From: Candidatus Berkelbacteria bacterium
GTDB lineage: Bacteria; Patescibacteriota; UBA1384; XYA2-FULL-43-10; CAINNR01
NCBI GenBank assembly: GCA_037142675.1
Contig: JBAXAF010000001.1
Span: forward strand, 28,543-92,542
Direction: 5' to 3'
Length of the DNA stretch: 64,000 nucleotides
In this document: piece by piece, positions 7,445-64,000 of the stretch
Numbering within the stretch: position 1 is the first letter of the stretch
Layout: every line of letters begins with the position of its first letter
The notes under the pieces: generated by a model
Databases searched by the model: none
Seen by the model: the letters and a program-made list of their open reading frames with translations, nothing else
What the model was told of the DNA's origin: nothing
Translations under genes and position numbers: made by a program

Positions 7445-7867
7445 ATGAATATGGCGAAGATTCAGGAAGCGCTTGCTGATGGTAAGAAGTTGGTGCTCAC
7501 GACGCGGGGCGGCAATTCGCGCGTTGCCGCACTTTGTCATCGGCGCTGCGAACCAGATCTCGGGTTCGATGTCGCCGGTACCTGGGCTGAGGCCGGTACA
7601 ATCTGGGATGCATTGGCCCAGCTCAATTTGAGTTTGATGTTCGGGCCGTGGACCTTTGAGCAGATGTATGGTGTTAATGGTCTGTTCCCGACGTGGTGGA
7701 TGGGCTACTCACCTGACTCGTATGGTCCGTTGGATAAGCTCATCCATGCTGGACATGTAGTGGATGTTCGCCAAACCGCCAACGGAAAGATCGAGCTGAC
7801 CGTTCCGGGTCTGGACTTCGAGATCGAGGCCGACAGCATCGAATTGGCATTCCTGGCAGTCAAGTAA
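7445..7867 (+). CDS. Hypothetical protein encoded by a high-GC ORF (about 60-65% GC by eye) between AT-rich flanks
   Basis: ORF with GC-rich codon choice (GCC, CTG, CGC), RBS GAGGACGTG, followed by intrinsic terminator (GC hairpin plus T-run, about 7893-7925). Confidence 0.5.
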   Translation: MNMAKIQEALADGKKLVLTTRGGNSRVAALCHRRCEPDLGFDVAGTWAEAGTIWDALAQLNLSLMFGPWTFEQMYGVNGLFPTWWMGYSPDSYGPLDKLIHAGHVVDVRQTANGKIELTVPGLDFEIEADSIELAFLAVK

Positions 7868-7934
7868 GGCGCCGACGGTGATATTTGCTGGCGGCGGTTC
7901 GCAGTTTGAACCGTCGCTTTTTTTATCCGAAAAA

Positions 7935-8114
7935 CTACTTTGCCAAATCGCCTTCGTGGCCGTGGCCGGGTTTCACGATTTTCTTGGCATGATTTCTTGA
8001 ATCTTCTTGAATTGAATCACCAATATTAACAATCTTCTCAAACTTGCCGTCTTTGTCACGAACGGCATAAAAGTTCTTTTTACCGCCGACTTTAACGATG
8101 TCTCTTTTTGACAT
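7935..8114 (-). CDS. Small hypothetical protein (59 aa, MSKRDIVKVGGKKNFYAVRDKDGKF...)
   Basis: ATG at 8114 preceded by GGAGG at correct spacing; the longer track ORF (to 8171) lacks an RBS. Confidence 0.45.
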   Translation of the reverse strand: MSKRDIVKVGGKKNFYAVRDKDGKFEKIVNIGDSIQEDSRNHAKKIVKPGHGHEGDLAK

Positions 8115-8182
8115 AATTCCTCCATGCTTACTTTTATCTACCATAATTTTACCACATATGATATTATACAAATCATGATCAA

Positions 8183-8234
8183 CCCTGTTAAATGCGCCGT
8201 TAGCGCAATCTGCAGGGCAGATTATTTAACAGGG
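8183..8234 (+). repeat. Family-2 structured palindromic element (CCCTGTTAAAT - two inner hairpins - ATTTAACAGGG), copy 1, in the 5' UTR of the ABC permease
   Basis: Outer 11-bp inverted repeat enclosing hairpins GCGC-CGTTA-GCGC and ATCTGC-AGGG-GCAGAT; related copy at 33080-33131 with compensatory inner stems. Confidence 0.55.
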
Positions 8235-8247
8235 TAAAAGGAGACAA

Positions 8248-9447
8248 ATGGAAATTTTAAGAAACATGTGGCGGAGGAAGTTTAGAACAGCTTTGACAAT
8301 TTTTGGAATTGTTATCGGAATCTTTGCATTTACCGTTATGGGTTCAATGGCTCTAAAGTTGAACAAAATGATCGATGGTGGAAAAAAGTATGTCACCGGT
8401 CAAATATCAGTTTCGCCAAAAGGTTCAGCTGGCTACGGAACTGCAACTGGGACATTGCCAATTGATACATTAAATAAAATTTCTGAGATTGATGGTGTTG
8501 ATAAGGTCGGAGCGCTGGTTTCGCTTTTAGTTGAGGACATGGACCCTGATAATATGTCAATGAATATGAGCGAGCCACCATCAGTGTACGGTCAGGATCT
8601 AAATTCCGATTTCAAAAACCGCAATTGGGAAACCATGACTATGAAGTCAGGAAAAATGCCTGACAAAGATTCAAAAGACAGCGATATTGCAGTCGGGGTA
8701 AATATTGCCACTGACAAGAAACTTGGCATCGGCGACAGTTATAAAATTCGCGGAAAAGATTTTAACGTTATCGGCATTGTCGACAAAACAATGACTGGGC
8801 CAGATAGCTATGTATTTATGGCAATTACACCGGCAAGGGAAATGCTAATTGAATCAAATCCGTTCATGAAATCACTTTACGCCAGCGGAAAATTAAAACT
8901 TGAAGATGTTAATTCCATGGCGGCAGTTTCCTGGAAAGATGGTGCTGATTCAGAAAAAGTAGCCAATGAAATCAAAAATAAATTTGGTAAGGATGTAACT
9001 GTTATGTCGCCAGTGAAAATGGGTGAGTTAATCGATAAAGCGTCTGCAACTATGAACGCAATTATTCTAGGTAGTGCAATGCTGGCGTTAATCGTTGGCC
9101 TATTCTCAATAGTAAATACTATGGTAATGTCAATTTCTGAACGAACTAAGGAAATTGGAATTAAAAAAGCTATTGGCGCATCGCCTTCTTCCATCGCCTG
9201 GGAGTACACAATGGAGGCCGGTATTATTGGCCTGGTTGGCGGAGCAATTGGCATGGGGTTCGGAGTTTTGGCTGCTACTATAATAAATAACAAATTGGCG
9301 GAAAAAGGGGCGGAAATATTTTTATTAGAACCTAGCTTTCTAATTGCGGTAATAGTATTCTCGTTTGTTGTTGGAATTATTGCTGGGGTAATTCCAGCGG
9401 TTAGAGCATCAAAACTGAAAGTGGTTGAGGCTATACGCGAACTATAA
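8248..9447 (+). CDS. ABC transporter permease, FtsX/MacB family
   Basis: N-terminal TM, large extracytoplasmic loop, three C-terminal TMs typical of the MacB/FtsX fold; RBS AAAGGAG. Confidence 0.85.
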   Translation: MEILRNMWRRKFRTALTIFGIVIGIFAFTVMGSMALKLNKMIDGGKKYVTGQISVSPKGSAGYGTATGTLPIDTLNKISEIDGVDKVGALVSLLVEDMDPDNMSMNMSEPPSVYGQDLNSDFKNRNWETMTMKSGKMPDKDSKDSDIAVGVNIATDKKLGIGDSYKIRGKDFNVIGIVDKTMTGPDSYVFMAITPAREMLIESNPFMKSLYASGKLKLEDVNSMAAVSWKDGADSEKVANEIKNKFGKDVTVMSPVKMGELIDKASATMNAIILGSAMLALIVGLFSIVNTMVMSISERTKEIGIKKAIGASPSSIAWEYTMEAGIIGLVGGAIGMGFGVLAATIINNKLAEKGAEIFLLEPSFLIAVIVFSFVVGIIAGVIPAVRASKLKVVEAIREL

Positions 9448-9453
9448 ATGTTT

Positions 9454-9522
9454 TGTCATTCCGGACTTGATCCGGAATCTCTATCAAAAGTAATTAGATC
9501 CTGAATCAAGTTCAGGATGACA
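9454..9522 (+). repeat. Family-1 double-hairpin REP-like element, copy A (TGTCAT-[TTCCGGA..TCCGGAA]-spacer-[CCTGAA..TTCAGG]-ATGACA)
   Basis: Terminal 6-bp inverted repeat TGTCAT/ATGACA plus two internal hairpins; intercistronic between the ABC permease and ATPase. Confidence 0.6.
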
Positions 9523-13043: not shown

Positions 13044-13742
13044 CTACACAGCAGCGACTTCGTCGGCAGGGCCCTCGAGCAACGCATGGATCCTGTCGGC
13101 GTCGGTGGCATCCATGCCAGCCGACCGACGCAAGGCAACTAGCTCATTGAGCCGATGCTTCAATCGCTTGAATGCCTGGTTGGCGGTGACGATCCGGTCG
13201 TCGGCGCCCGAGCGAAGCGCTGACTCGATTTCAGCCAGCGTTTCCTTGACGATCTGGTTGCCCCGGATTTCATCCATGGTGAGTCCTGCTTCAACGGCCT
13301 CGTCGACGATCTTCTTGATCCGCTCGGAGAAGATCGGTCGGGAGTTGGCGATCAGGCTGTCGGCAGCTTGGCCAACGGTCGGTCGCTGGACCCGCTGACA
13401 CTTCTCGTGTTTCAGATCAGCATCAATTGCTGTCCAGGGCGTCTCGCTCTGGTGAGGGCCATCAGTTGGCTTCACCGTCAGAGCGACTTGGTCGGACGGC
13501 AACCAATTGCCATGAGGGTCGCCCATCAACTTCTTGCGCGTGTCGGGGCCAATGAAGACCTTTGCTCCCTGGTTGGCCCCTTCGCCGCTGAGACACTCGA
13601 CAATAGTGGCGCGGCCGAAGCGCTCGTGGAGCGCCTCGATTTCGACCACCACTGCTAGTACGTCTGACTTTCGGTAATGCTGGCGGCGCTTGCCCTGTTC
13701 CATGATTACACTTTCTGTGCAAATATGATCTGGCTTCGTCAA
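13044..13742 (-). CDS. Hypothetical protein from a high-GC ORF (likely true start at internal Met, about 13703)
   Basis: ORF with high GC; intrinsic terminator downstream (12988-13020, CCCTGCCGG..CCGGCAGGG plus T-run); no recognisable domain. Confidence 0.45.
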   Translation of the reverse strand: MTKPDHICTESVIMEQGKRRQHYRKSDVLAVVVEIEALHERFGRATIVECLSGEGANQGAKVFIGPDTRKKLMGDPHGNWLPSDQVALTVKPTDGPHQSETPWTAIDADLKHEKCQRVQRPTVGQAADSLIANSRPIFSERIKKIVDEAVEAGLTMDEIRGNQIVKETLAEIESALRSGADDRIVTANQAFKRLKHRLNELVALRRSAGMDATDADRIHALLEGPADEVAAV

Positions 13743-13868: not shown

Positions 13869-14507
13869 TTAGGTCTCAGCCTGTACCGGGATTTCAAGCC
13901 CGGCTATCGGTTTCCTTGGCTGTGTCGCAGGGTCGGACAGGTGATCGATCAGTGGCGCGAATGTTCCCTGAAGTAGCGCCGCGACTGTCATTGGCTTGTG
14001 CCAGTCTTGATGATCGTCTTTGTAGGAGATATCGATCATCATCTCCTCGGACTTGGGCGCCTTGCGAGCTCCCTTGATGTGGCCGGGGTCATCAGCGAAG
14101 AGGATTTCTGCGTTCCGCAGGCTGTCTCGCTGATCACAATCACCATACATCAATCGAAGCAGTTTCAGGACTCTGGCATCGATTTGTGGAAATATCGGGG
14201 AGATGTCCGACAGGTCGACGTCGATTGTACCTGGACGGATAATGTCCTTGACGCTAAACCCCCGAATTGCCCATTCTCCTTCGTCGTCGGCGTACTCGAC
14301 GCGGAGTACTGTGTCGCTGGTGCCCATGCCAAAGGCTGGGTTTGTACTGAAGATCTTGCCGGTCAGTGACTCATCTTTACCCCACCCTCGGTACCGAACT
14401 GTGATCGGTCGACCTTGCAGAGACCGCCTAACTACATCAAGCTCGCAGTTCATGGCGATGAGTAGGTAGAGTGCGGCCGAATCTTCTGGCGACAATTGGG
14501 CTATCAT
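13869..14507 (-). CDS. Hypothetical protein from a high-GC ORF, adjacent to the previous one
   Basis: 212-aa ORF in the same GC-rich block; no recognisable domain. Confidence 0.45.
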   Translation of the reverse strand: MIAQLSPEDSAALYLLIAMNCELDVVRRSLQGRPITVRYRGWGKDESLTGKIFSTNPAFGMGTSDTVLRVEYADDEGEWAIRGFSVKDIIRPGTIDVDLSDISPIFPQIDARVLKLLRLMYGDCDQRDSLRNAEILFADDPGHIKGARKAPKSEEMMIDISYKDDHQDWHKPMTVAALLQGTFAPLIDHLSDPATQPRKPIAGLEIPVQAET

Positions 14508-14590: not shown

Positions 14591-14663
14591 TTGATTTAGA
14601 TTGTCCGCAGGATCATCTTCGATAGACCGCGCCCTTCGGGCTTGCAATGACAAAACAAAGAAA

Positions 14664-17337: not shown

Positions 17338-17413
<76 letters not shown>

Positions 17414-17506
17414 CCTCGACAAAATTGTCTCGGGTGGTACCAGTACCTGGAGATTATTATTGCCAGAATTGGCTCGGCTGATAACAACACCTTTAAAATT
17501 GCATAT

Positions 17507-17592
17507 GCTGGGATAGCGAAGTGGTCAAACGCATTGGACTGTAAATCCAACGGCTTACGCCTTCGTAGGTTCGAGTCCTACTCCCAGCACCA
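17507..17592 (+). tRNA. tRNA-Tyr (anticodon GTA) with long variable arm
   Basis: Acceptor GCTGGGA/TCCCAGC, anticodon loop CTGTAAA, long extra arm, T-loop GGTTCGAGTCC, ACCA. Confidence 0.85.
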
Positions 17593-17743
17593 GCCAAAAT
17601 TGCTAATTCAATTAGCGGTTTTGGCTGGTGAGTTGAATAGTAAGAAGGCGAGAAAGTCGGAGGCGCGACTGGCGCCGAGACGGGGTCGACGAATCCCGAA
17701 GCATCGGGATATCGGTGACCGAGTCCTACTCCCAGCACCACTT

Positions 17744-17819
17744 GCCGATATAGCTCAGTTGGTAGAGCAACACTTTTGTAAAGTGAAGGTCGTGGGTTCG
17801 AATCCCTCTATCGGCTCCA
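17744..17819 (+). tRNA. tRNA-Thr (anticodon TGT)
   Basis: Acceptor GCCGATA/TATCGGC, anticodon loop TTTGTAA, T-loop GGTTCGAATCC, CCA encoded. Confidence 0.8.
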
Positions 17820-17861
17820 TTTAAATCGTTTTAAAAAACAGAATAAACCCGAAAGGAATAT

Positions 17862-18023
17862 ATGGCAAAAGATGCACGCAATGTTGTAACTTTGGAATGC
17901 GAAGTCTGCAAGGAAAGAAATTATCAGACTGAGAAAAATACCAAATTGCAAAAAGAGCGATTACTTTTGAAAAAATATTGTAAACGCTGCAAAAAACAAA
18001 CTCAGCACAAAGAAGCTAAATAA
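17862..18023 (+). CDS. rpmG: 50S ribosomal protein L33 (53 aa, below the ORF-track cutoff)
   Basis: MAKDARNVVTLECEVCKERNYQTEKNTKLQKERLLLKKYCKRCKKQTQHKEAK; two CxxC pairs and the L33 length; located in the Thr-Tyr-Thr tRNA cluster. Confidence 0.8.
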   Translation: MAKDARNVVTLECEVCKERNYQTEKNTKLQKERLLLKKYCKRCKKQTQHKEAK

Positions 18024-18038
18024 AACATAGCTTCACTT

Positions 18039-18112
18039 AGGGGTATAGTTCAATGGTAGAACGACGGTCTCCAAAACCGTTAATCGGGGTTCGAGCCCTC
18101 GTACCCCTGCCA
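18039..18112 (+). tRNA. tRNA-Trp (anticodon CCA)
   Basis: Acceptor AGGGGTA/TACCCCT, anticodon stem ACGGT/ACCGT loop CTCCAAA, T-loop GGTTCGAGCCC, CCA encoded. Confidence 0.85.
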
Positions 18113-20106: not shown

Positions 20107-22539
20107 ATGCAGCCTATTAGGATTTTTGATATTATTGCTCGTCGCCGGATTATGATTTTCGGCGTGGTTTTAGTTATAATTTTTGGCACAGCTATTGGCT
20201 TGGCTGCGAACTTTTTTGCCAATTCTAAAAAAGCTCATGCCGACAGTTACACTCTCGGTGACGGTGGCTACATTGGCCCAAATGATGCTTCCAGGGATTG
20301 GGCCAATACCGATGTCACTGTCACTGCTTCTGCTGATAATCCCGCAGCAATTGATGGCAAACATACATTCAAGAACTTGACTGTTCAAGGAACACTAACG
20401 ACGTCGGATTACAACCGCTACGGTGTTGATGGTATGTACTATGAAAAAAATTTAGCAGATGCTCGCGACGCTAAATCGTTATTTGAACTTACTAACGACC
20501 GTTATGTGTTTATAATGCGAGGGTTTATCAACACTGGTGGCGTCGCAAAAGACTATTATCTGACGAGTGAAACCGATGGCACAGTAAGCGGGCATCCTGA
20601 TTCCTTTCGAGTCGATGATACAGCTGTAATGCGTTTCTACCCGGCTGTTTCAGAATCAACTGAAAAATCTGCAGATTTGTTTACTGGTGAAGTTGGTTAT
20701 GCAATGACCAACTATGGTAGCATTTATGACGGAACGAACGGAAAATTTCAGCAGTATTCTGATGCTTTAACCAGCGCAGGAAGTCCAATACTACCTTTCG
20801 AGTTGGTCTATGCAAATAGTGGCGGCGGCCAGCACTACTTTGGTGTTTCAACATGCGCTGCTGCATGTTCAACTACAATAGGAAATCACACATTTGTTCG
20901 AACGGTGGATAATGAAACTACTTTTGCTGGTATGCCCGACGGTTCAATCGAGACCTATCAGGCTTGGCAGGGTAGCCGCACTGACACAGATGTTAGCGCT
21001 GTGAAGCAAGATTTGGTAAATATTTTCAATAAAAATTGGACTATCTCCAAAGCCGATTTGATTAGCGGGGTTTCTGCCCACCGAAAAAATAATCTATATG
21101 AAGATTACTACTTTGCAGATAATTACAACTTTTTCTCTGATCCTAAGGTTTATCTTCAGAACGACAAAAATATGCTGGATTCTCCTGTGACAGTTGCTTT
21201 GTCAGATGACCAACAATACCAATGGTCGAGCGCTGTTGGTGACATTAAATACGCTTTTTTTCTACCTAAAACTGATTGGTATACAACTTCCCCTTTAGCA
21301 AGGCGGGGGAACGCAAATGCGGGTTTTCCGATTATTGCTCAGTCACTATTTAGAACTATGCACAATCTTCCTTCGACGGCAGGTAAGCGAACCGAGATTA
21401 CGGTTACGGAAACTCTTTCAATTTTGGGAACTGGCAGAATAAACGTAAATGGCAAAGGTTTTGCTAACTCATTTATAACCGCTAGCGGTGGCAGAACACG
21501 TTTTGGGGCGGGTCCAGGAGCTGGCTATGGCGACCACAACTCTTCTCCTGCGGCTTCTCATGCGGGGCTAGGCGGCGGTCAAAATGATGCGACTGTTCGC
21601 TACGATAACGCTGTCGGCAATCAACCAACTTTGCCTGGGTCTGCTGGTGGATTTAATAGTGATGATATGGGTTGCGCTTATAGAATATCCGTAGGCTATC
21701 TTGATACTCTCTGTATTAGAGGCATTGACTATTATCTTGGATTTGGTGGTGGATACATCTCTCTATCAGCCAATGTGGTTAATTTATCTCCTGGCTCAGC
21801 TATTACAGCCAACTCGACAGCTGGGCGTTCTTATCAGCCAACTCCTGGTGGGTCAGGTGGAGCTATTATCATTCAAGACGCAGATTCTGGCTCACAGTAT
21901 GGCGGCGCAATCGAAGCTATGGGCGCAGGCTCAGATGAGTCTGAGGACCATACTATTTCACCTGGCGGCGGCGGCGGCAGTATTTACATTGCCACGTCCG
22001 GTAGCGTTGCGGGTTTAAGGGCTAAAGAAAATACAGCACTGGCTCCTTCATTTTATAATGCCTCAGATTGGTTTAGGAATAACCGCCCTGGCCAATTTGA
22101 TGTTCTGAAAATTTCAGCTTCAGGAGGTGATTCGGAGCGTGGCGTTGATGGTTCATACGGAATAGTAAATATCGTTGGTAGCCAACCACCAATGGCTGGA
22201 ATTCACAAAATCATTGACAAGATTTATCCGCTTGATGGTACGTCGCCGTATAACCTAAAACCTGCTGATAAAATACGCGTTACTTTACATGTGACCAATT
22301 TGGTCGCTGGCCAGCCAATTACAATACGGGACGAGTTTTTCAGTGATGGTACAGCCGCTGGTATTAGCAAGTTCACGTTAATCGCTAGCAGCAATGATTG
22401 TAAAACTCATCTCGGTGGCGCTAGCGTTGACCTTTCGTCGTGCACCATGACTCCGTCGACTTCGGACATCTCCTGGACGTTTACTCCAGCTGCTGGACAA
22501 GAAACCGTCGATCTTCAATACAGTCTTTTGGTCAAGTAA
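20107..22539 (+). CDS. Large secreted/surface protein, Gly-rich repeats (hypothetical)
   Basis: N-terminal signal anchor, G-rich low-complexity stretches (GGGY, GAGPGAGYG), no enzymatic motif. Confidence 0.55.
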   Translation: MQPIRIFDIIARRRIMIFGVVLVIIFGTAIGLAANFFANSKKAHADSYTLGDGGYIGPNDASRDWANTDVTVTASADNPAAIDGKHTFKNLTVQGTLTTSDYNRYGVDGMYYEKNLADARDAKSLFELTNDRYVFIMRGFINTGGVAKDYYLTSETDGTVSGHPDSFRVDDTAVMRFYPAVSESTEKSADLFTGEVGYAMTNYGSIYDGTNGKFQQYSDALTSAGSPILPFELVYANSGGGQHYFGVSTCAAACSTTIGNHTFVRTVDNETTFAGMPDGSIETYQAWQGSRTDTDVSAVKQDLVNIFNKNWTISKADLISGVSAHRKNNLYEDYYFADNYNFFSDPKVYLQNDKNMLDSPVTVALSDDQQYQWSSAVGDIKYAFFLPKTDWYTTSPLARRGNANAGFPIIAQSLFRTMHNLPSTAGKRTEITVTETLSILGTGRINVNGKGFANSFITASGGRTRFGAGPGAGYGDHNSSPAASHAGLGGGQNDATVRYDNAVGNQPTLPGSAGGFNSDDMGCAYRISVGYLDTLCIRGIDYYLGFGGGYISLSANVVNLSPGSAITANSTAGRSYQPTPGGSGGAIIIQDADSGSQYGGAIEAMGAGSDESEDHTISPGGGGGSIYIATSGSVAGLRAKENTALAPSFYNASDWFRNNRPGQFDVLKISASGGDSERGVDGSYGIVNIVGSQPPMAGIHKIIDKIYPLDGTSPYNLKPADKIRVTLHVTNLVAGQPITIRDEFFSDGTAAGISKFTLIASSNDCKTHLGGASVDLSSCTMTPSTSDISWTFTPAAGQETVDLQYSLLVK

Positions 22540-22548
22540 TTAATATCA

Positions 22549-23607
22549 ATGAAAAAATATTTGATGCCAATTGGGATTTTGTTTTTGCTGGCAGTCTTTT
22601 GTTTGCCAAGTATTTGTGCGTTTGCTCTCGACGCTAGCAATGAAACTCCAACACTAAATTGGGGCAGTCCGTCGGCGTTCTGGACGGACGGCAGTCAAAA
22701 TTACATAACTTACTACCAAGGAATTACAACTGGGCCGCCTGACGCTTCTATTTCTCATGCGACTGACGTTTTTCGAAACGTCGCGCCAGCAACTTTGCCT
22801 GATTTAATTTTCAATAAAAACTGTTTGTTAGATGCTAAAGACTCCAGCCTTACTTCGGTAGGGCAGTGTGTCAATTTTAACGGCCCAAGCTCGACGACAG
22901 TTTTTAATAGCCGAACATACGCTAATGGTTTCTTGAAATCGGCAACTGCAGTTATTAAATATCCATCGATAAATGTTATCGGTGACTCATTTAACTCGTC
23001 TGGTAACTTTGCCTATTGGGGGCAGCACTTACGTCAAACAGACCCTTCAAATTCTACTGATTCCAATGCTTATTGGCAGATGAAAGGTTATCAGTTTAAT
23101 CAAGCTGCTCAATCATATTGGGATAACACCGACGCAAATAACAATAAGACAATGACTGCCACTATTGCCAGGTTAATGCAAAACGCAAAGGCGCTATCTG
23201 CAGGGACGTCTAATTTAATTACAACTTCGTTTAACGGGATATGCTATCCGCTATCTTTTTCTGATAATTCTTGCACTGAGGTCAACCAGTATTCAGACGG
23301 CCGCGTGTGGTATTCGAGAGGCCCTCTCATTCTAAATGGTGGGGTCACTTATTCTAATAAAGCAAGTATAATAGTGCAAACTGGTGATTTGAAAATAGAT
23401 AGCTCAGTTAAAGCTTCTGCTAGCAGCCCGAATTCAAGCCTTGGTTTAATCGTTCAGAGCGGCAATGTTACAATTACCAACAATTCAGCTAGTCTAATGA
23501 CAGTCAGAGCATCTATTTTTGCCCCACAGGGGACAATTAAACTTGTTGGTAGCAATATTACCTTAATCGGCTCATTCATTGCTAAAGACTTTGATGTCGG
23601 TAGTTAG
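22549..23607 (+). CDS. Secreted hypothetical protein
   Basis: Signal peptide MKKYLMPIGILFLLAVFCLPSICAFA; Ser/Thr/Asn-rich. Confidence 0.5.
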   Translation: MKKYLMPIGILFLLAVFCLPSICAFALDASNETPTLNWGSPSAFWTDGSQNYITYYQGITTGPPDASISHATDVFRNVAPATLPDLIFNKNCLLDAKDSSLTSVGQCVNFNGPSSTTVFNSRTYANGFLKSATAVIKYPSINVIGDSFNSSGNFAYWGQHLRQTDPSNSTDSNAYWQMKGYQFNQAAQSYWDNTDANNNKTMTATIARLMQNAKALSAGTSNLITTSFNGICYPLSFSDNSCTEVNQYSDGRVWYSRGPLILNGGVTYSNKASIIVQTGDLKIDSSVKASASSPNSSLGLIVQSGNVTITNNSASLMTVRASIFAPQGTIKLVGSNITLIGSFIAKDFDVGS

Positions 23608-23633
23608 CTAGGAAAATTAGACAGAATTAAAAG

Positions 23634-27337: not shown

Positions 27338-27339
27338 AT

Positions 27340-44881: not shown

Positions 44882-44890
44882 TTGAATACA

Positions 44891-46942: not shown

Positions 46943-47020
46943 GCGCTCTGTATGCTTTCAGCTTCATTATTAATCGCTTCATCCTCGAACTAAAGTTTGA
47001 GGTTTTCGCTATCTTGTTAT

Positions 47021-47052
47021 AAAAAACACCGCCCATTACGTCGGACGGTGTG
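47021..47052 (-). terminator. Intrinsic terminator after the GC-rich gene 47080..47508, followed by TTTTTTATAACAAGAT
   Basis: CACCG..CGGTG hairpin plus T-run on the minus strand. Confidence 0.5.
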
Positions 47053-47079
47053 ACAACTCGGAAAGTTGTCGGGTTCGCG

Positions 47080-47508
47080 CTAGAAGCCGTTGGTGTGATC
47101 ACCGCTCTGATGACCAGCCGGCGGGTCGGTGAGGCGAAGGTCATTCGGATCGGGTTGCGGCGGGATGCCATGTTGAGGAGGTGGGGCATTCTTGTTCAAG
47201 GCCTCAATCATAGCGCGGTCGTCGATTACAACTGTGATGATCGGTCCAGAACTGTCATGAACTGGTGCCAGTGCCGCTTGCGCAGGTGATGGCGACCGCT
47301 TGACAGCCTGGTACTGCTCCTCGTCGACCATTACCATCCAGCGATACCACCGACCAAGGTGGTCAAGTTTCCAGACAATGTCGGAGCCGGTGACCTTTCC
47401 GACCTGGTTGGAGCGGCAGAGCCGATAGTTGTCCATGCCGGCCGAAATGCCAAACAGGACAACCGCTACCCACAGAACCAACCCGATAAACGTCAGGTTA
47501 TCTTTCAT
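47080..47508 (-). CDS. Hypothetical membrane-anchored protein from a high-GC ORF
   Basis: Start MKDNLTF with RBS GAGGCGAGAG; N-terminal TM FIGLVLWVAVVLFGI; Pro-rich C-terminus. Confidence 0.45.
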   Translation of the reverse strand: MKDNLTFIGLVLWVAVVLFGISAGMDNYRLCRSNQVGKVTGSDIVWKLDHLGRWYRWMVMVDEEQYQAVKRSPSPAQAALAPVHDSSGPIITVVIDDRAMIEALNKNAPPPQHGIPPQPDPNDLRLTDPPAGHQSGDHTNGF

Positions 47509-47622
47509 CTCTCGCCTCACTACGTGTGATTTTCAGCGTATGTATAAACTATAGCACATTATCATAAAAAAGTCAACTAAAAAATGCCTTCGATACTTTA
47601 TCTCAGGCATTTTTCGATCAAT

Positions 47623-47893: not shown

Positions 47894-47964
47894 TGTCATC
47901 CTCGGACGGCGTAGCCAGATCCGGGGATCCACTAATAGTAGATTCCCGCCTTTGCGGGAATGAC
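47894..47964 (+). repeat. Family-1 double-hairpin element, copy D (left hairpin with enlarged loop)
   Basis: TGTCATCCTCGGA-CGGCGTAGCCAGA-TCCGGGGATCCACTAATAGTAGATTCCCGC-CTTT-GCGGGAATGAC; abuts the dprA RBS GGGGGAAAG. Confidence 0.6.
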
Positions 47965-47974
47965 GGGGGAAAGT

Positions 47975-51368: not shown

Positions 51369-51566
51369 TTACTTCTTGGCGGTTGGCGTTGGGAAGCTAA
51401 TACCAACTGCGGCAACAGCCAGCCCGAGCAACATGCAGATAAGACTCATCGCATATTGAGCGATGACATGTGCAGGCGATGTCCCAGCGCACGTGTAGAC
51501 GTTGGGGTAAATCGCCATGGACAGCGCTATGAGCACTATCATGTAAATCAGCCTAACCGGAATCAT
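51369..51566 (-). CDS. Small two-TM membrane protein (65 aa)
   Basis: RBS GGGAGATGA; two hydrophobic helices; hairpin plus T-run downstream (51312-51345). Confidence 0.4.
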   Translation of the reverse strand: MIPVRLIYMIVLIALSMAIYPNVYTCAGTSPAHVIAQYAMSLICMLLGLAVAAVGISFPTPTAKK

Positions 51567-53921: not shown

Positions 53922-53975
53922 CACTATAAAAAGAAAAGCGCCACAGTGGCGCATGCCATGTGGCGGGAAGTGTGT

Positions 53976-53996
53976 AAGGCCCAGTGGGCCTTTTTT
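53976..53996 (+). terminator. Intrinsic terminator after cysS
   Basis: GGCCCA-GT-GGGCC followed by T6. Confidence 0.5.
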
Positions 53997-55108
53997 GATT
54001 GTGGGGCTGCCCAGTTTGTCGCCGGTTTAGCTGGTGACAACTCTGATCCGAAGATCACAGTACTGGGTTTTGCTGGTTTGGAACCAGCTGGTTTCGGATC
54101 CTTCCGATGCTTGTTGCCAGCATTTCTGCCGGCAAATCGGGAAGAGGAATTTCCCATAGTAACTGTCCCAAGCGTCCGAGCCAACCGATCACCGAAGTGA
54201 TCAAGAATACTTCTGCGGCTTTTATGAACGAGTACAAAGACCGTCCAAGCGCGCATCGGAAATGTCCGATTGAAGCATCTTTTGGTGGCCCAGGCGTCAG
54301 GGACAGACTTGTAATAAGTGTCCCGACGGGGCCACCAGGTGAACTTTGAACGGGGACTTGTTCGCAGTTCATTTGGGGCTCAGCATGGTCAGTGCTAATG
54401 TCCTTTTATTGGCGACAATCGCCAGACCATGGCCATTAAAGTCGGCGCTAGCTGGGATTTAAGCGCTTTCCTTTTGACAGCTGCACTTTAGCATATACTA
54501 TATAGATCTGTCAATAGGCACGGTGAAATAAAAAAGCACCCGAGGGAACGTTGAGTTGTCCCAAGGGTGCCGCTGGTCTGCGACTTGGCGTGCCTAGGCT
54601 ACGCCAACCGCGTTCTGCGCTCGGTTCCCCGAGTGCGGAATCGGTACTTCATGAAGTGAAATTCCTCCACCCCGTATTGGGGTCCATGGAATGATTCGGC
54701 TGCTTGTTGCTGGCCGGATTATCAGCATCTAATCGCGTTGATTGATGCCAATATTTCCGGCCGGGCCGGGCCCGCGCTGGTCTAGCTGCCGCCGGTGCTG
54801 ATCGCCGCCGCGCCCACGTCGTCCTGGACGAGCTGGGGAATCATACCGATGCTGGTGGCCTTGTTCTCGCCGCTGCTGCAGTTATTCACTATCGGAGTCA
54901 TGCCCAAACATAACCTGCGTCTGTGCCTCATGGCACTCACCTTGTCCACTCCCATTGCCGGGAGGTAATGAAGCTCCGCTGCTTTCCGCGCTGTCAACTT
55001 CCCAGTCTTGCCCACGGATTGCAACTTTGCTTTTGCTATGTTGGCGGAGCCCACCAATTTTTGTGGGTCACTGTGTGTCTACCCTCGATCCTCCACCAAA
55101 CTGAAAAC

Positions 55109-56270: not shown

Positions 56271-56602
56271 GTATCACTGGAGCGTTTAATTCGAGAAGTA
56301 GAAGTTTGATTCGAAAAATGTTCAAAACATTTTTCTGGGGAGAATTATCAAATTTCACTACTCGATATACTGACTTGTAGGCAGAAGTATAGCTGGGATT
56401 TAGGGACCTATGGGCAGAAGGATTTTTAAACTAGCGGCATTTCGACCCCATAAACTATGTGGGTCAGCCGCGAAGTTGCCTTCTGCTTCTCTCCTTTTTC
56501 CTGGCTAGACTTCTGCCTTCTTTTTTTCCGGCTTGCCGGTTCAAGATAGAGGAACAGACCTGCGCCGCAACGCGGGCAGGACCACATTGGAGGTGACGCA
56601 TC

Positions 56603-57694
56603 ATGCGTCGCACAGGTTTGGCAGTTGTAGTCGCTCTGGTGCTGGCCCTCACCGCTACGGCGGTATTGGGCGGGGGATTCGTCCTCGACAGCATCGTGGC
56701 TCAAGTGTATTCCGAGAAAGTGACGATGGTGGATGCAGGAGTATCCACTTACGCCAACTACTCGGATACGATGAGCGGCACGATCAACGGAGTCGCGCCC
56801 AACGCCGGCAATGTCACGGCGCTTTGGGACAAGTTTGGCGTAACGAACGAGACACGGTGGCTGCGAATTGTCACTGTTGTCAAGGACGTTAAGAGCCAAC
56901 AGATCATCGACATCAAGCAGGCCTTTGTCACTCCGGAGAACAAGCAGACCAACGACGGCATCGTATGCAAGGTCGTTAGTCCGTACGAGATCTGGATCGA
57001 CACACAGAGCCTGCCCGAATTCACGAGGTTTTCGCCCGTTGTGGTTCAGAACGCCTCGACCAAGGAGCACCGCATCATCTGGATCTTCCGCTCGGTTAGC
57101 CATATCGAGCGCGAGAACTCGGCCGACGTGTTCATCACTCGGCTCGATATCTCAGATGAGTTGTCGGAGGATCTGGTCGGAGGACAGCCGCAACTGGGTC
57201 TGACGCAGACACTGCTCGAGAGCAAGGACCGCCCCAAGGCAGTCTCGCGCCTACTTCGGGCGTACGTTTACTCGAGGTACCCGATTCAGCTGACCAGGAC
57301 ATCGGCGCCGTATCAAATCGTGGCCGATGGTCGGGCCCAGGCTGTTCAGGGCATGGCCCAGGACCAGACGCGCGATGCTATCGCCAGGCTGACTGCTGCC
57401 TATGAGAAACAGGCCGCGGAAAGCAAGGCGACTATCGACAACTTGGTCCAGAAGCTGAACGCGTCAAAGCCTCAGAATTGGAGTATTGGGGTCGGCCCCT
57501 CTCCGACTGGCGCTTGGTACGTTTGGCTCGATGGCGGGCCCAAAATGCGCGTTGCCGCTGACACTGTCAGTTTCAACACGCTGCTGGGCACTCACTGGGT
57601 CGAAGTTGTACCTGAAGGTGACGCGTTCAAGAGTTGGCACCGCTGCGTTGTGACGCAAGCGGGCCAGCAGCTCGACTACGCGGAGGTGAAGTAG
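56603..57694 (+). CDS. Secreted hypothetical protein from a high-GC ORF
   Basis: RBS GGAGGTGACGC, signal peptide MRRTGLAVVVALVLALTATAVLG; about 60% GC by eye. Confidence 0.5.
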   Translation: MRRTGLAVVVALVLALTATAVLGGGFVLDSIVAQVYSEKVTMVDAGVSTYANYSDTMSGTINGVAPNAGNVTALWDKFGVTNETRWLRIVTVVKDVKSQQIIDIKQAFVTPENKQTNDGIVCKVVSPYEIWIDTQSLPEFTRFSPVVVQNASTKEHRIIWIFRSVSHIERENSADVFITRLDISDELSEDLVGGQPQLGLTQTLLESKDRPKAVSRLLRAYVYSRYPIQLTRTSAPYQIVADGRAQAVQGMAQDQTRDAIARLTAAYEKQAAESKATIDNLVQKLNASKPQNWSIGVGPSPTGAWYVWLDGGPKMRVAADTVSFNTLLGTHWVEVVPEGDAFKSWHRCVVTQAGQQLDYAEVK

Positions 57695-57695
57695 G

Positions 57696-58634
57696 ATGAA
57701 GTCGCAAAGGTTGTTTCTGTTTGGTTTTGCACTGTTGCTCTGCGTTGCAGGTTTTGCGCAGGGGCAGCAGGCCTTGACCGCTAATGTCGCCGTGACTGAG
57801 GCTAGGACCGATACCCCGTTTAGCATCACCTGGGGAACGGTTATGCCTCTGGCCGGCCACATCTTCGCGCAGCCTTGGCTCAAATCATGCAAGGCAGTGT
57901 GGAGCGACTATTACCCGTCCCCGGCTCGTTTGACCACGGTCTACGATTGCCCTGCAAAGGGTGACAGTCTGACCCCGGTCAACGACGTCGCTGGGCAGAG
58001 GCCCTGCTGGGTTTTCTGGAAGGAAAAGGGGGTCTGCGGTGCCGCGGTGGAGAGAGGCGATAGGGGGAACTTTATCGTTTCGACGTTCACCATCATCGGC
58101 GGTATCAAGGAAGTCGTACACGAAACCACGGTGGAGAGAACGCGTACTGAGTATGTCGAAACACCAGGACGCGTGGACACAGTCTTTGTCAGCACTCGGG
58201 GGTACATTCCTCCTGCTGGCATAACTGCCGTCGGAACTACCAACCTGTCTATCCCCTCGGGGCATGAGAACATTGGCCCTGAAGAAGGAAAGCTCTATCT
58301 TGGTTTCCGTCGCACTGTGAACACTCCGGCGGTTTGTCCGCCGAAACCGCCCAACCCGCCTCCTCCGCCCCCAAGTGGGCCGACCTGTCCGCCGGGGACC
58401 CCGAATCCCCCTAACCCGCCCAGCTCGCCCGAGGTGAACGTGCCTCCGCACGATCCTTCTACCCCTGTGGTGCCTGGCGGGGACTCCGTTCCCCCAGGCG
58501 TTGGGCCACCCCCGCCGGCACCGCCGGACCACGGGATTATCACACCCGACCCGGGCGAACCACCTACGCCTCCGCATATGCCCACCCCAGATGGTGAGCA
58601 TCAAGCGGACCCGGTGGATCCGACAACGCTGTAA
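57696..58634 (+). CDS. Secreted hypothetical protein from a high-GC ORF with Pro-rich C-terminal tail
   Basis: Signal peptide MKSQRLFLFGFALLLCVAGFAQG; C-terminal PPKPPNPPPPPPSGP...; start codon 1 nt after the upstream stop. Confidence 0.5.
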   Translation: MKSQRLFLFGFALLLCVAGFAQGQQALTANVAVTEARTDTPFSITWGTVMPLAGHIFAQPWLKSCKAVWSDYYPSPARLTTVYDCPAKGDSLTPVNDVAGQRPCWVFWKEKGVCGAAVERGDRGNFIVSTFTIIGGIKEVVHETTVERTRTEYVETPGRVDTVFVSTRGYIPPAGITAVGTTNLSIPSGHENIGPEEGKLYLGFRRTVNTPAVCPPKPPNPPPPPPSGPTCPPGTPNPPNPPSSPEVNVPPHDPSTPVVPGGDSVPPGVGPPPPAPPDHGIITPDPGEPPTPPHMPTPDGEHQADPVDPTTL

Positions 58635-58865: not shown

Positions 58866-60353
58866 ATGAAAATAGGGGAAATGTTTGCAAAGGTTGGGGG
58901 AAGTATCAAAGGTTTCGTTACAAACAGAAAGAAAATGGTTGCAACTGTAGCCGTAGCCGCAACACTTGTTGCAGGAGTTTTTGGTTTGCAAGCAAAGCAG
59001 TCTGCTAATGCTACTGGCACACCAAGATTCAACTTCTTGACTGGTGACTCAGAAATGTTACGAGTCGGCAAAGTTACCGATTCTACTTGGGGCGACCCAA
59101 TCAGCGCCAATATTGGTGACAGAGTTGCCTTTCTTTTCTATTACCACAACGGTATGTTAAACACTACCGCCCACAATACGACTCTTTGTGTTGATTTGCC
59201 TGTAGATCAAGGAACACAGCTAAAAGCTACAAGTTACCTTTGGTCTTCAGAAACAGCTTATATTCAAGACACTGTTGTTGACGGTGCTATTGTTGGCCAA
59301 GCTGGCGCAACAATCAACCTTCCAACAAACGGTAGAATTTCCTATGTTCCAGGTACTTCACGATGGTTTGCAAATGGTTCCAGCACTGGTCAAAATTTGC
59401 CAGATGGAATTGTTTCCGCTTCCGGTATCAACATTGGTGACATTCAGGGTTGCTGGCAGTATTCAGGCTATGTTACTTTCTTGGCCGATATTGGTGGCCA
59501 ATCAAATCTAGTTTTGGATAAAAAAGTTGCTCATCCAGGTGAAACCACTTGGCATGACGAAATTGTTGCCAATCCTGGCGACAGCGCAGTTTACAACGTT
59601 GGCGTTCGAAATGACGGCGATGTTACCGCTGCACAAGTTTCCGTTAAAGACGTTTTGCCTACTCATATGACCTATGAAACCGGTACAACTTATCTATATA
59701 CCAAAGATCATCCAGAAGGTTTGAAACAGGCAGACACTTTGTTTTCAACAGGAATTGCACTTCCTAACATGCTTCCTGGTCAGGCAAATGCCGACTACAT
59801 CACTTACCGAGCGAAAGTCGATTCCAATATCCCTGCTGGTACTTGGGCCTTGAATAATCAAGCTCGAGTTTATCAAGCTGGTGTTGAAAAAGACATGGAC
59901 CAAGCCAAAGTTACAGTGACCGCCAACCGTGGTTTAGTTATCGCAAAAACAGTTTCAAACGGTACGAGCTGGGTTGAGCAGAACACTGCAAAAATTGGTG
60001 ATACTGCATCTTATAGAATTATAGTTAAAAATACTGGTAATATCGCCGTCACCGGTGTGTATGTCAAAGACATCTTGCCGATGTATGTAAACTATATTCC
60101 AGGCACAACCAAAATTGATGGTGTTGCTGTAGGCGACCAAATAATCACTACTGCTGGACTTTTAATCGGTGATTTGGCTCCAGGCGCACAAAAAGTTATC
60201 ACTCTACAAGGCATAGTATTTGGTTGTCCTCCTATTGGTGGATTCAACGCGACCAATACTGGTTATACTTGGGCAACCGGTGTAGCACAGATTTCTGATA
60301 CAGCAATTACTGTCATCAACGTTACCGCTCCGACAGCACCTGCTACTCATTGA
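58866..60353 (+). CDS. Secreted DUF11-repeat (CARDB/Ig-like) surface protein, paralog of the next gene
   Basis: Signal anchor; N-terminal 120 aa homologous to the next ORF (PRFNFL.GD.EM...DPIS....D...YYHNGM.NTTA.NTT); DUF11-like VKNTGNIAVTGVYVKDILP. Confidence 0.65.
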   Translation: MKIGEMFAKVGGSIKGFVTNRKKMVATVAVAATLVAGVFGLQAKQSANATGTPRFNFLTGDSEMLRVGKVTDSTWGDPISANIGDRVAFLFYYHNGMLNTTAHNTTLCVDLPVDQGTQLKATSYLWSSETAYIQDTVVDGAIVGQAGATINLPTNGRISYVPGTSRWFANGSSTGQNLPDGIVSASGINIGDIQGCWQYSGYVTFLADIGGQSNLVLDKKVAHPGETTWHDEIVANPGDSAVYNVGVRNDGDVTAAQVSVKDVLPTHMTYETGTTYLYTKDHPEGLKQADTLFSTGIALPNMLPGQANADYITYRAKVDSNIPAGTWALNNQARVYQAGVEKDMDQAKVTVTANRGLVIAKTVSNGTSWVEQNTAKIGDTASYRIIVKNTGNIAVTGVYVKDILPMYVNYIPGTTKIDGVAVGDQIITTAGLLIGDLAPGAQKVITLQGIVFGCPPIGGFNATNTGYTWATGVAQISDTAITVINVTAPTAPATH

Positions 60354-62471: not shown

Positions 62472-62626
62472 TCGACTTATAACAAGATGTGATAGTGTGC
62501 CCTTGGGCACCACAAGGCGTTAAAAGCCGAATGAAATGAGGCTTATAGGGAAAATTATTTAGGGGGATAATCGTCCTGTCAGATAGAAAAAAGCCTTCGA
62601 GAAATCGGAGGCTTTTTTCGTACGTA

Positions 62627-62655
62627 TTGACAAAACAACAAAAATAATATATACT
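62627..62655 (+). promoter_or_regulatory. Promoter TTGACA-N17-TATACT upstream of GC-rich ORF 62733
   Basis: Exact spacing; preceded by terminator 62587-62619; module duplicated at 63374-63402. Confidence 0.5.
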
Positions 62656-62732
62656 GCTGCCATAACTGCTTTGGCAGTTCAATCCTGCATAGCTGATGAT
62701 CATACGTGATCTTAGGCGATTGGAGACTGAAA

Positions 62733-63260
62733 ATGAGACCAATGACGTGGGACGAGCTTAACCGTATCTACTGGGGCAGGGACTTGATACGAGTCTCATG
62801 GGAAGAGAACGGCTGCGTGAGGAAGGTCAGGATCCTCATAATGCACCATGAGGACCGATACGGGAGCCATGGTGCGTATGTCTTTAGCCAGAGCCTCACA
62901 TATGCCGATAACCCCAACTGGCGTGGCGCTGACAGTGGCTTCCACTGGCAGTTTGATCCTCAGGTATCAGCTGAGAACCCGTCGCAGGGCCTCGTCACCT
63001 TCCTGAATGATCTGGCTGTCCCCGAACTTTGGCGGACGATGGATGACATCGTTTTCTGCCAGAAGATCGGCAAAGGGTCCTATAAGAAGATCGGCAACTG
63101 CAGCCTGAAGGTTCTTCGGCAGTTGGAGCGCTTTGTCGGGCGGCTTGAGACCACCCAGGGCCTCGATCACCGTGTGCTTCACCGCACGAAGGGGATGCTC
63201 GACCAGGCGTTCAATGAGATCATGGCGTCCTCGGCGAAGCTCCACACTGCCTTGAGCTAA
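62733..63260 (+). CDS. Hypothetical protein from a high-GC ORF
   Basis: RBS GGAGACTGAAA; nested-hairpin terminator with T7 at 63270-63307. Confidence 0.45.
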   Translation: MRPMTWDELNRIYWGRDLIRVSWEENGCVRKVRILIMHHEDRYGSHGAYVFSQSLTYADNPNWRGADSGFHWQFDPQVSAENPSQGLVTFLNDLAVPELWRTMDDIVFCQKIGKGSYKKIGNCSLKVLRQLERFVGRLETTQGLDHRVLHRTKGMLDQAFNEIMASSAKLHTALS

Positions 63261-63373
63261 CTTGTCCGTCCGCCGCGCCCCACGTATTGGGGTCCGGCGG
63301 TTTTTTTATTACCCCAAGAATCGGAGGCCTTTTTCGTGTCTTGCCGTGAAGTGAAATTGGTTTGTTCCATCGG

Positions 63374-63402
63374 TTGACAAAGTATATCAAATATGATATA
63401 CT
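63374..63402 (+). promoter_or_regulatory. Promoter TTGACA-N17-TATACT upstream of GC-rich ORF 63583
   Basis: GGTTGACAAAGTATATCAAATATGATATACT; shares the AATCGGAGGCYTTTTTCGT upstream block with the 62627 module. Confidence 0.5.
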
Positions 63403-63582
63403 TATTTCACGTTGCTGGAACGATTACGTTTCAGCAGTAAAAGCTAAATCTGCTCTTTCGTTGCGGCAACTGAGCAGATGTCAAGAAGTTCCGGAAGCAC
63501 ACCGGATTATCAAAAACTGCACAATGCCGCCCGATCGCTAATATGCGATCTGGTAATTTCCCCACTAATAGGGGGAAGTCAA

Positions 63583-64000
63583 ATGTCTCAGCATAAGTCA
63601 GAGATGTTTCGGGTTCACATGCCGTTTCGTGCACGCCTGGCGCAGTTCATTGCGCTAAGGGCGTACCGGGGGTTCTGTACCGAGGTTCTGGAGGAGACGA
63701 ATTTCGAGCAGGATCCGATCCTGCTGACGGTACACGAAAGCCAGCTCAAAGAGTCTGGCATGGAGAGAGGACGTACAACTCGAATCGTGGTACGCTACGA
63801 CGGCGGCATCGTCGTCGAAATGCGACTGCTATCGTGGGGTGAACAAGGCGACAGTTTCGGCGAGCAGTGGTCAGTCCAATCGATCACTGTCCGTGTTCAG
63901 CGACAGCTTGTCGGCCACACGTCGTGGGATGACGAAGACGTGGAATGGAGGTTTCGTTCGTATGCAGAGGAAGACCTTCAGTCATCCATCGAGAGGTGGT
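63583..64000 (+). CDS. Hypothetical protein from a high-GC ORF, 5' part (runs off the window end; absent from the ORF track)
   Basis: RBS GGGGGAAG 5 nt before ATG; open frame with no stop to the window end. Confidence 0.4.
   Translation, partial: MSQHKSEMFRVHMPFRARLAQFIALRAYRGFCTEVLEETNFEQDPILLTVHESQLKESGMERGRTTRIVVRYDGGIVVEMRLLSWGEQGDSFGEQWSVQSITVRVQRQLVGHTSWDDEDVEWRFRSYAEEDLQSSIERW

Follow-up and report, generated by a model that had tools for sequence, protein, structure and literature searches.

How can genes remain much richer in GC than their neighbours within the genome of an AT-biased bacterium? This question is raised by a 64-kb stretch of a Candidatus Berkelbacteria genome (GenBank assembly GCA_037142675.1, contig JBAXAF010000001.1, positions 28,543 to 92,542), here called the window. 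Nine GC-rich open reading frames (ORFs), designated A to I, are scattered in it among genes of ordinary composition. In the preliminary description of this DNA, they were regarded as repeated horizontal acquisitions, perhaps from a high-GC host such as an actinobacterium, or as cargo of a phage or plasmid. The present analysis indicates that the GC-rich composition is a stable property of a gene class, not the decaying footprint of recent transfer. The descriptive part of this conclusion, that is, autonomous and clade-restricted cassettes with persistently high GC, is very probably correct. The best overall explanation, a persistent high-GC class kept by a GC-ward force with selection on transcript composition as its preferred form, is given about an even chance. 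The window is 100% identical to positions 55324-119323 of contig CAZGMR010000011.1 in the NCBI assembly GCA_964526775.1. Loci and contigs of relatives are referred to by L-numbers (L014 is Ga0247841_10000709).

The GC content of the whole window is 42.7%. Calculated per gene, the 44 host genes range from 0.35 to 0.48 in GC and from 0.25 to 0.47 in GC at third codon positions (GC3), and the nine listed ORFs from 0.51 to 0.61 and from 0.59 to 0.73, respectively. The GC/GC3 values are 0.55/0.64 for A (7445-7867), 0.59/0.70 for B (13044-13742), 0.54/0.61 for C (13869-14507), 0.51/0.59 for D (38393-38917), 0.57/0.65 for E (47080-47520), 0.58/0.73 for F (56603-57694), 0.61/0.65 for G (57696-58634), 0.56/0.73 for H (62706-63260), and 0.56/0.65 for I (63583->64000). 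A scan of all ORFs in the window added two small GC-rich members of the minus strand, one at 51369-51566 and the other at 54782-55057. The distribution of GC3 is discrete and bimodal, and no ORF lies between the two modes. The contrast described earlier (55-65% against 35-40% GC) is real, but the actual range is a little lower, about 51-61% against about 37-45%. Codon usage, which had been described as different, is inverted in every amino-acid family of the GC-rich ORFs, with ATC preferred to ATT, CTG/CTC to TTA, AAG to AAA, and CGC/CGG to AGA. The encoded proteins are also shifted in their residues; R, P, Q, H and W are increased, and K, I and N are decreased. The composition-normalised tetranucleotide signature of the GC-rich ORFs differs from that of the host and is shared among them. 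The correlation is 0.61 between two halves of the islands and 0.34 between host and islands, compared with 0.76 between size-matched subsets of host genes.

Most of the GC-rich units are autonomous cassettes, each composed of a near-consensus sigma-70-type promoter, a leader of 20-80 nt, an ORF and an intrinsic terminator. Promoters of the type TTGACA-N17/18-TATAAT, matching at 10-11 of 12 positions and usually with a perfect -35 box, are present in seven of the 12 units: A, B, D, E, H, the ORF of 91 amino acids (aa) at 54782-55057, and a unit for a candidate RNA. They are located 6-83 nt upstream of the start codon or, in the RNA unit, of the transcript start. Only four of 24 host upstream regions reach 10 of the 12 promoter positions. 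Terminators consisting of a hairpin and a T-run were detected by an automated scan downstream of A to E, and those of G and H were recognised by eye in the sequence only. F and G constitute a two-gene operon, while B and C, and H and I, adjoin each other as separate units. An own promoter and terminator had earlier been assigned to each listed ORF; six of the 11 ORFs have such a promoter, and C, F, I and the 65-aa ORF at 51369-51566 have no promoter match under strict criteria.

The persistence of the composition is seen in four protein families. Orthologues of F and G are syntenic, in the order dus-F-G-CLIPPER, in L011/L013, L012 and L096 to L100. Those of F are 49-59% identical with GC3 of 0.72-0.78, and those of G are ~47-66% identical with GC3 of 0.63-0.76; other genes on the same contigs have GC3 of 0.22-0.45. 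A profile scan of GTDB genomes with F matched one species genome. An orthologue of C (59% identity, GC3 0.66) occupies the slot between M50 and zf_Tbcl genes in L094, and another (79% identity, GC3 0.63) lies beside M50 on the short contig L095. For B, an exhaustive HMMER search gave only six matches at E<=0.001, five of which are plausible relatives. The homologues of B show 25-57% identity, with E values of 1e-11 to 1e-6 for the distant ones. Three relatives of B with readable contigs are 25-30% identical and monocistronic, with GC3 of 0.70, 0.85 and 0.85, a TTGACA promoter and a terminator, and they adjoin M50, zf_Tbcl or RNase J genes (neighbour GC3 0.40-0.62). Taken over L011, L012, L094, L095, L096, L098, L101 and L102, homologues of F, G, C and B have GC3 of 0.61-0.85, against 0.31-0.62 in their neighbours. 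These four families evolve fast at the protein level. The offset above local host genes is similar in every genome examined, about +0.2 to +0.4, and this persistence indicates that the composition is stable rather than transient. Conservation of the same proteins with equally high GC in relatives, the observation that the preliminary description had named as speaking against acquisition, was therefore found for F, G, C and B.

The presence of the cassettes, in contrast to their composition, is variable. Gain, loss and re-filling of the cassette slots take place over the time that separates species. L014 is collinear with the window over 1-22 kb, with core proteins 63-94% identical, and lacks A as well as B and C. 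The sequences on either side of A align base for base, and the 580 bp present only in the window correspond exactly to promoter, leader, ORF and terminator. L096 and L099, in which topA, recR and cysS are 95%, 94% and 86% identical to those of the window, lack E and the 65-aa ORF; mfd and a gene for 71 aa are 6 bp apart, and topA and recR are 8 bp apart. The E segment missing from L096 is ~710 bp. Clean empty sites thus total five cassettes: A, B and C (L014), and E and the 65-aa ORF (L096). Slots are also occupied by other genes. In L015, the M50/zf_Tbcl slot is taken by another GC-rich ORF, ~70 aa long, which has a promoter and a terminator of its own. The slot following the CLIPPER genes resembles a hotspot of replacement: it holds GC-rich ORFs of 152-175 aa with GC3 of 0.65-0.73 in four lineages (62733-63260 in the window, L096:16129-16656, L011:6541-7068 and L012:7675-8133), and they are mutually unrelated, with no detectable similarity. 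Cassette I was seen in neither L011 nor L012. The earlier proposal of gain and loss at gene boundaries is supported by these empty sites and by the unrelated ORFs in one slot. This part of the proposed repeated acquisition stands; the part that implied recent import of high-GC DNA does not hold for F, G, C and B. At the cassette borders in the window there is no integrase, transposase, tRNA target, target-site duplication or shared border repeat, and a search of the window found no miniature inverted-repeat transposable elements, attC-like sites or border repeats tied to the islands.

Is the composition at equilibrium? In both gene classes, about half of the conserved residues are encoded by different codons in the window and in its relatives; that is, synonymous sites are near saturation. 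Three-taxon parsimony implies a GC3 equilibrium of 0.63 for the islands (current value 0.71) and of 0.48 for host genes (current value 0.39). The two deviations mirror each other and are as large as parsimony bias should make them, and thus give no indication of net GC decay. A two-state decay model was based on four-fold sites of host genes compared between the window and L096 (A/T versus G/C difference 0.33-0.36; GC at four-fold sites, GC4, 0.32-0.34), and gave a decay factor per lineage of 0.45-0.49. GC4 of F and G is now 0.68. If host synonymous sites are assumed to reflect a neutral process, the host regime would require GC4 of 1.09 at the split between the window and L096, which is impossible, and a GC-ward force is inferred to act on these transcription units. 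Expressed as a fixation bias and back-calculated from GC3 values, the offset would correspond to a scaled strength of roughly 1.3-2.

The force is not confined to codons. The 5' leaders of the islands have a GC content of 0.45, compared with 0.28 in host leaders and 0.34 in host intergenic DNA, which indicates that the force is not purely codon-level. The promoters of the GC-rich units remain AT-rich. It is likely that the force, whatever its nature, would act on the transcribed unit including the leader and not on adjacent core genes. Selection on transcript composition would maintain GC-rich mRNAs written in the G/C-ending codons that are rare in this genome. Such mRNAs could form a separate expression class, set apart by their stability and/or by reliance on a different subset of tRNAs; it would comprise accessory proteins that evolve fast, several of which are secreted or membrane-anchored. 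As the specific mechanism, selection on transcript composition is proposed tentatively, with somewhat less than even confidence.

Three other causes were considered and rejected. Classical translational selection does not fit, as rplA (ribosomal protein L1), pilins, CLIPPER proteins, glnA and aminoacyl-tRNA synthetases prefer A/U-ending codons. Selection for a specific RNA fold does not fit the folding z-scores, which average -1.3 for island ORFs and -0.5 for host genes, against -5 to -8 for a candidate non-coding RNA (ncRNA). Promoter strength alone is not the cause, as the gene for the penicillin-binding protein (PBP), pilN and ileS have good promoters and normal GC.

Several points weigh against the best overall explanation. 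The comparative evidence comes from four of the 11 protein families, with two to five lineages each, and the decay calculation depends on the neutrality assumed for host synonymous sites. Compared with shuffled controls, the island mRNAs show only a mild excess of structure (mean z of -1.3, versus -0.5 in host genes). The GC-shifted residues fit any GC-ward force, a mutational one included. All close contigs are 100% identical to the window, so that they offer no strain polymorphism. Four-fold-site divergence of F and G is above that of flanking genes (0.62 versus 0.47), and the identities among F orthologues are star-like, 49-59% whatever the distance between hosts. These last two features are explained no worse by local hypermutation or allele exchange than by selection. 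CLIPPER-domain protein 1 (CLIP1, 58866-60353), next to the F-G operon, shows a four-fold-site divergence of only 0.29 from L096:12320-13807, compared with ~0.5 in other core genes. Such a low value beside the diverged F and G suggests either recent recombination between lineages or an unusually strong codon constraint. With the raised divergence of F and G, the star-like pattern of F and the low divergence of CLIP1, allele exchange and a locally raised mutation rate are still live alternatives to selection.

The first of these alternatives to be weighed is a local GC-biased mutation or repair process confined to these transcription units, either gene conversion at recombination-prone slots or transcription-coupled AT-to-GC hypermutation. 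Such a process would also speed protein evolution. In its favour are the GC enrichment at all three codon positions and in the untranslated leader, the fast evolution of the proteins (F is 54% identical between the window and L096, its neighbours 84-95%), the higher four-fold-site divergence, and the near-consensus promoters; in addition, seven of the 12 units are on the minus strand, though the window is mostly plus-strand. The boundaries, however, are very sharp: core genes only tens of bases away are unaffected, and the promoters are AT-rich. The PBP gene, pilN and ileS have equally good promoters, yet normal GC, and C shows no excess of synonymous divergence. Gene conversion is reported to change GC3 in bacteria by a few percentage points, while the shift here is 30-40 points. 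On balance, a local process of this kind is considered unlikely.

The second alternative assumes that the families mainly reside in an unsampled GC-rich element or lineage, a mobile pool of the same clade, from which the chromosomal copies are repeatedly overwritten by natural transformation and homologous recombination in the flanks, so that their GC stays high. Several features are compatible with this. The identities of F are decoupled from host distance (between the window and L096, F is 54% identical, topA 95% and CLIP1 94%), four-fold-site divergence is raised in F and G, and the low synonymous divergence of CLIP1 is consistent with recombination, or alternatively with codon constraint. 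The slot of H has been replaced between lineages. The window also encodes dprA and a type IV pilus/competence-like cluster. On the other hand, all homologues found are single GC-rich genes in contigs of lower GC, and no GC-rich multi-gene context was found among them. In each genome GC3 lies well above that of the local host genes, by about 0.2-0.4, and does not take a single pool value: in the B family it is 0.70 in the window and L098, where neighbours have ~0.37-0.40, and 0.85 in L101 and L102, where neighbours have 0.41-0.62. The neighbourhood of B is moreover kept at 25-30% protein identity. Replenishment from such a pool is improbable.

The third alternative is the one of the preliminary description, recent and independent import of each cassette from a high-GC donor (actinobacterial host, phage or plasmid) without amelioration so far. 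Its basis is the atypical composition with sharp presence or absence relative to the sister-species loci L014 and L096, along with the replacement in the H slot. No relatives were recovered for A, D, E, H and I, which were not among the queries of the large homologue searches, and it is mainly to cassettes of this sort, those lacking comparative data, that recent import would apply. Among viral folds, B is matched best by uncharacterised phage proteins of about the same length (~200 aa), with TM-scores of only ~0.3. The searches with F, C and B as queries, covering 5.8 billion proteins and 1.8 billion representatives, gave no homologue outside Patescibacteria. Nothing was found in IMG/VR (protein scans), INPHARED (tblastn) or PHROGs. 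The suggested high-GC donor therefore finds no support; homologues are in Patescibacteria only, with none in IMG/VR, INPHARED, PHROGs, PADLOC, Pfam or NCBIfam. The borders without integrase, repeats or target-site duplication also speak against import, as do the host-type, AT-rich promoters inside the inserted units. F, G, C and B keep their slot or neighbourhood and undiminished GC across near-saturated synonymous divergence, and recent import is already refuted for these four families. As a general explanation, it is quite improbable.

The cassette ORFs are real protein-coding genes restricted to a Berkelbacteria/Patescibacteria clade. The junctions between host and GC-rich DNA are 100% identical among independent assemblies from ENA (two samples), Logan (two runs), JGI (two metagenomes) and NCBI (two metagenome-assembled genomes, MAGs), and the same arrangement recurs in other species; chimeric assembly, which had been mentioned as a concern, is excluded by these two observations. 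In the called frames of the GC-rich ORFs, GC decreases in the order GC3 > GC1 > GC2, where the numbers are codon positions, and most of these ORFs have a Shine-Dalgarno motif. In F, G and C, nucleotide identity to orthologues is highest at position 2, then position 1, then position 3. The values at positions 2, 1 and 3 are 0.76/0.68/0.47 for F, and the identities by codon position for C are 0.67/0.79/0.45, a coding-sequence pattern. In the two NCBI MAGs, the cassette proteins are annotated as hypothetical proteins only. The idea that the GC-rich ORFs are structured RNAs was rejected, given the only mildly negative folding z-scores and the coding periodicity. An artefact, either a chimeric assembly or non-coding GC-rich DNA in which the AT-richness of stop codons leaves long ORFs by chance, is already refuted for the ORFs and deserves hardly any credence, since, even though spurious ORFs in several frames do occur in GC-rich regions and the listed region 53925-55100 is indeed devoid of a long conserved ORF, the same junctions appear in at least six independent assemblies from four sources, conservation in F, G and C is codon-position-specific, the called frames show that order of GC, Shine-Dalgarno motifs, promoters and terminators are present, and homologues exist at the protein level.

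The cassettes can be compared with several known systems. Morons of lambdoid and other tailed phages are reportedly autonomous insertions of promoter, ORF and terminator. Like them, the cassettes are single ORFs that carry a sigma-70-type promoter and an intrinsic terminator of their own, are inserted between genes which adjoin each other in relatives, and differ in composition from their flanks. Unlike morons, they lie among chromosomal housekeeping genes (argS, mfd, topA/recR, cysS/dus) without a prophage, have no phage genes nearby and no phage homologues (no PHROG match), and their atypical composition is conserved in orthologues and is not a mark of recent arrival. Horizontally acquired genes and islets are said to be atypical at first and then to ameliorate toward the host, and they are usually AT-richer than the host. 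The cassettes resemble acquired genomic islets in atypical base composition and codon usage, variable presence and ORFan content. They differ in being GC-richer than the host, in keeping the same GC3 despite near-saturated synonymous divergence and at protein identities as low as 25-30%, and in having no mobility genes, tRNA targets, border repeats or donor lineage (the last searched for with F, C and B).

Two further systems concern the possible force. In mycobacterial hypoxia, changes in the tRNA pool and its modification reportedly lead to selective translation of codon-unusual transcripts. By analogy with such stress regulons, the cassettes are a discrete gene set written in genome-rare codons that could be translated separately; in contrast to them, the cassettes show a global GC shift, in codons, residues and leaders, and not in particular codons. 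GC-biased gene conversion is said to act on recombining bacterial genes. The likeness is that GC3 is raised in genes that seem recombination-prone or exchanged. The differences are that the increase of 0.3-0.4 in cassette GC3 is far beyond reported effects and that it is limited to single transcription units with sharp borders. Integron gene cassettes are different again, as the units here are scattered, without an integrase and without a shared end repeat except for a T-run motif of D and E. A search of full-text literature found no description of persistently GC-rich cassettes in Patescibacteria, and there is a real chance that they reflect a gene-class-specific compositional regime hitherto undescribed in bacteria.

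The individual cassettes are diverse. No paralogy among them was detected by all-against-all blastp, and the nine listed products have no significant match in Pfam, PHROGs, PADLOC, NCBIfam or PDB sequences, in agreement with the earlier remark that they contain no recognisable domains. N-terminal hydrophobic segments are present in F, G, E and the 65-aa ORF. Cassette A (7351-7930, plus strand) comprises the promoter TTGACA-17-TATTCT, a leader of ~47 nt, the ORF 7445-7867 for 140 aa, and a terminator hairpin with a T-run. Cassette B (13044-13742, minus strand) has the promoter TTGACA-17-TACAAT (11 of 12 positions) and a terminator, and its probable start at 13703 would give 219 aa. The AlphaFold2 model of B (13047-13703, minus strand; pLDDT 78) predicts an N-terminal five-stranded barrel resembling the oligonucleotide-binding (OB) or cold-shock fold, followed by a C-terminal helical bundle. 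The barrel in the model contains a motif resembling 'YGFA' of its homologues, and in Foldseek the N-terminal domain best matches, among PDB entries, the cold-shock domain of Lin28 (E=2.4e-3, above the tool's 0.001 mark). Cassette C (13869-14507, minus strand) encodes 212 aa.

Cassette D (38393-38881, minus strand) encodes 162 aa with CxxC zinc-ribbon-like motifs and has the promoter TTGACA-17-TAATAT, an AAGGAG ribosome-binding site and a terminator; its only family matches are sub-threshold ones to zinc-binding families. Cassette E (46912-47620, minus strand) comprises the promoter TTGACT-17-TATAGT, the ORF 47080-47508, a terminator and extra flanking terminators. Its protein of 142 aa has an N-terminal transmembrane segment and a Pro-rich tail. 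Just past their terminators, D and E have in common a T-run sequence of 15-22 nt, at 38340-38361 and 47011-47032 (TTTTTTATAACAAGAT), which could be due to chance or could represent a shared end. The small ORF at 51369-51566 (minus strand; GC 0.52, GC3 0.62) encodes a hydrophobic 65-aa product and is called as a gene in L005. The small cassette at 54782-55057 (minus strand; GC 0.59, GC3 0.76) has the 91-aa ORF and the promoter TTGACA-17-TAATAT at 55137-55109. An A-run and a hairpin lie beside it at ~54560-54600, and the matching region in L096/L099 is GC-rich, with a 68-aa ORF and poor nucleotide conservation.

Gene F (56603-57694, plus strand) encodes 363 aa with an N-terminal signal or transmembrane segment, and its AlphaFold2 model is poor (pLDDT 47). 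Gene G (57696-58634, plus strand) begins one base past the stop codon of F and encodes a protein of 312 aa that has a signal peptide and a C-terminus rich in proline; a hairpin terminator lies downstream. Cassette H (62733-63260, plus strand) has the promoter TTGACA-17-TATACT (11 of 12 positions), an ORF for 175 aa and a terminator. Cassette I (63583-64000, plus strand) runs off the window; the full ORF of 165 aa is seen at L005:16981-17478 and ends 80 bp beyond the window.

Two candidate RNAs are associated with the GC-rich units. The block 53925-55100, which had been listed as a GC-rich island, is indeed GC-rich; it is not a gene island, having no long conserved ORF, and is composed of a candidate ncRNA and, in its right half, the 91-aa cassette. 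The candidate ncRNA of ~550 nt (53928-54480, minus strand) lies between cysS and dus in the left half of the block. Its promoter (54514-54485), which is conserved, and its terminator (53952-53938) are likewise on the minus strand. It shows 75% nucleotide identity to L096:7432-7980, with many indels not divisible by three and a core of ~100 nt at ~98% identity. There is no conserved ORF, and the six reading frames score alike. Its folding energy has a z-score of -7.8, and RNAalifold gave 148 pairs, six of them compensatory and none broken, from two sequences only. The core had no match in a DNA-pattern scan of IMG/VR. With Rfam 15, only tRNAs reached the gathering score in the window, and the best matches of this candidate and of a hairpin in the F-G leader are no better than chance (E 0.017-10), with scores far short of the gathering ones. 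The promoter and terminator, the conservation without an ORF, the stable fold and the absence of an Rfam match together make this a candidate for a new structured RNA. Within the F-G operon, the leader contains a rod-like hairpin of 145 nt (56376-56520, plus strand), conserved at ~85-95% across four diverged lineages, for which RNAalifold gave 52 pairs, five of them compensatory, from four sequences. The hairpin may have a role in regulation or processing.

The host genes around the cassettes are typical for a bacterium belonging to the Candidate Phyla Radiation (CPR). They include genes for a class A PBP, argS, NUDIX, a MacB/FtsX-ABC pair, PHP, an M50 protease, holB, PSP1, glnA, a type IV pilus cluster, trpS/tyrS, RNase H, ileS, mfd, dprA, topA, recR, cysS, dus, two CLIPPER-domain surface proteins and five tRNAs. 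The complete type IV pilus cluster (25874-36385) encodes PilN/O, two T2SSE ATPases, PilC, prepilin peptidase and at least four pilins. Directly upstream of it, at 20107-25760, are genes for three large proteins (810, 352 and 708 aa) with no Pfam match, high GC at second codon positions and normal GC3. The pilin genes at 32249-33503 are a recent tandem duplication, and a 73-nt intergenic sequence is doubled at 100% identity (32249-32321 and 33007-33079) upstream of two paralogous pilin genes. A tRNA cluster at 17338-18112 encodes Thr-GGT, Tyr-GTA, Thr-TGT and then Trp-CCA; a GC bump with a 151-aa 'ORF' at 17369-17824 was considered as a gene island and rejected, as it is this tRNA cluster.

Two families of palindromic repeats resembling repetitive extragenic palindromic (REP) sequences, TTGTCATTSC...GGATGACA and GTAGATTCCCGC...GCGGGAATGAC, are mostly intergenic. 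REP-like repeats are located at 9452-9522, 37984-38054, 14644-14653, 37242-37251 and 37947-37956, and also at 43155-43190, 44848-44883 and 47932-47967. The TTGTCATTSC...GGATGACA motif occurs five times, compared with 0.45 expected by chance. REP-like repeats do not consistently flank the cassettes in the window.

Atypical base composition is routinely read as recent horizontal transfer and is assumed to decay toward the host value. A possible, though somewhat speculative, generalisation is that some Patescibacteria have a two-compartment genome, in which fast-evolving accessory genes are held for a long time at a separate, higher GC equilibrium by a dedicated mechanism. This mechanism would be either an expression regime defined by composition or codons, or targeted GC-biased mutation or repair. 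If the pattern is genome-wide, composition-based detection of transfer would mislabel these cassette genes. It would also reveal a strong gene-specific GC-ward force in an AT-biased bacterium, which would bear on the roles of selection, gene conversion and mutation in setting GC content, and it would define a set of ORFan proteins that are strongly promoted and evolve fast, several of which are secreted. The cassette proteins are candidates for roles in the poorly understood surface and host-interaction biology of CPR bacteria.

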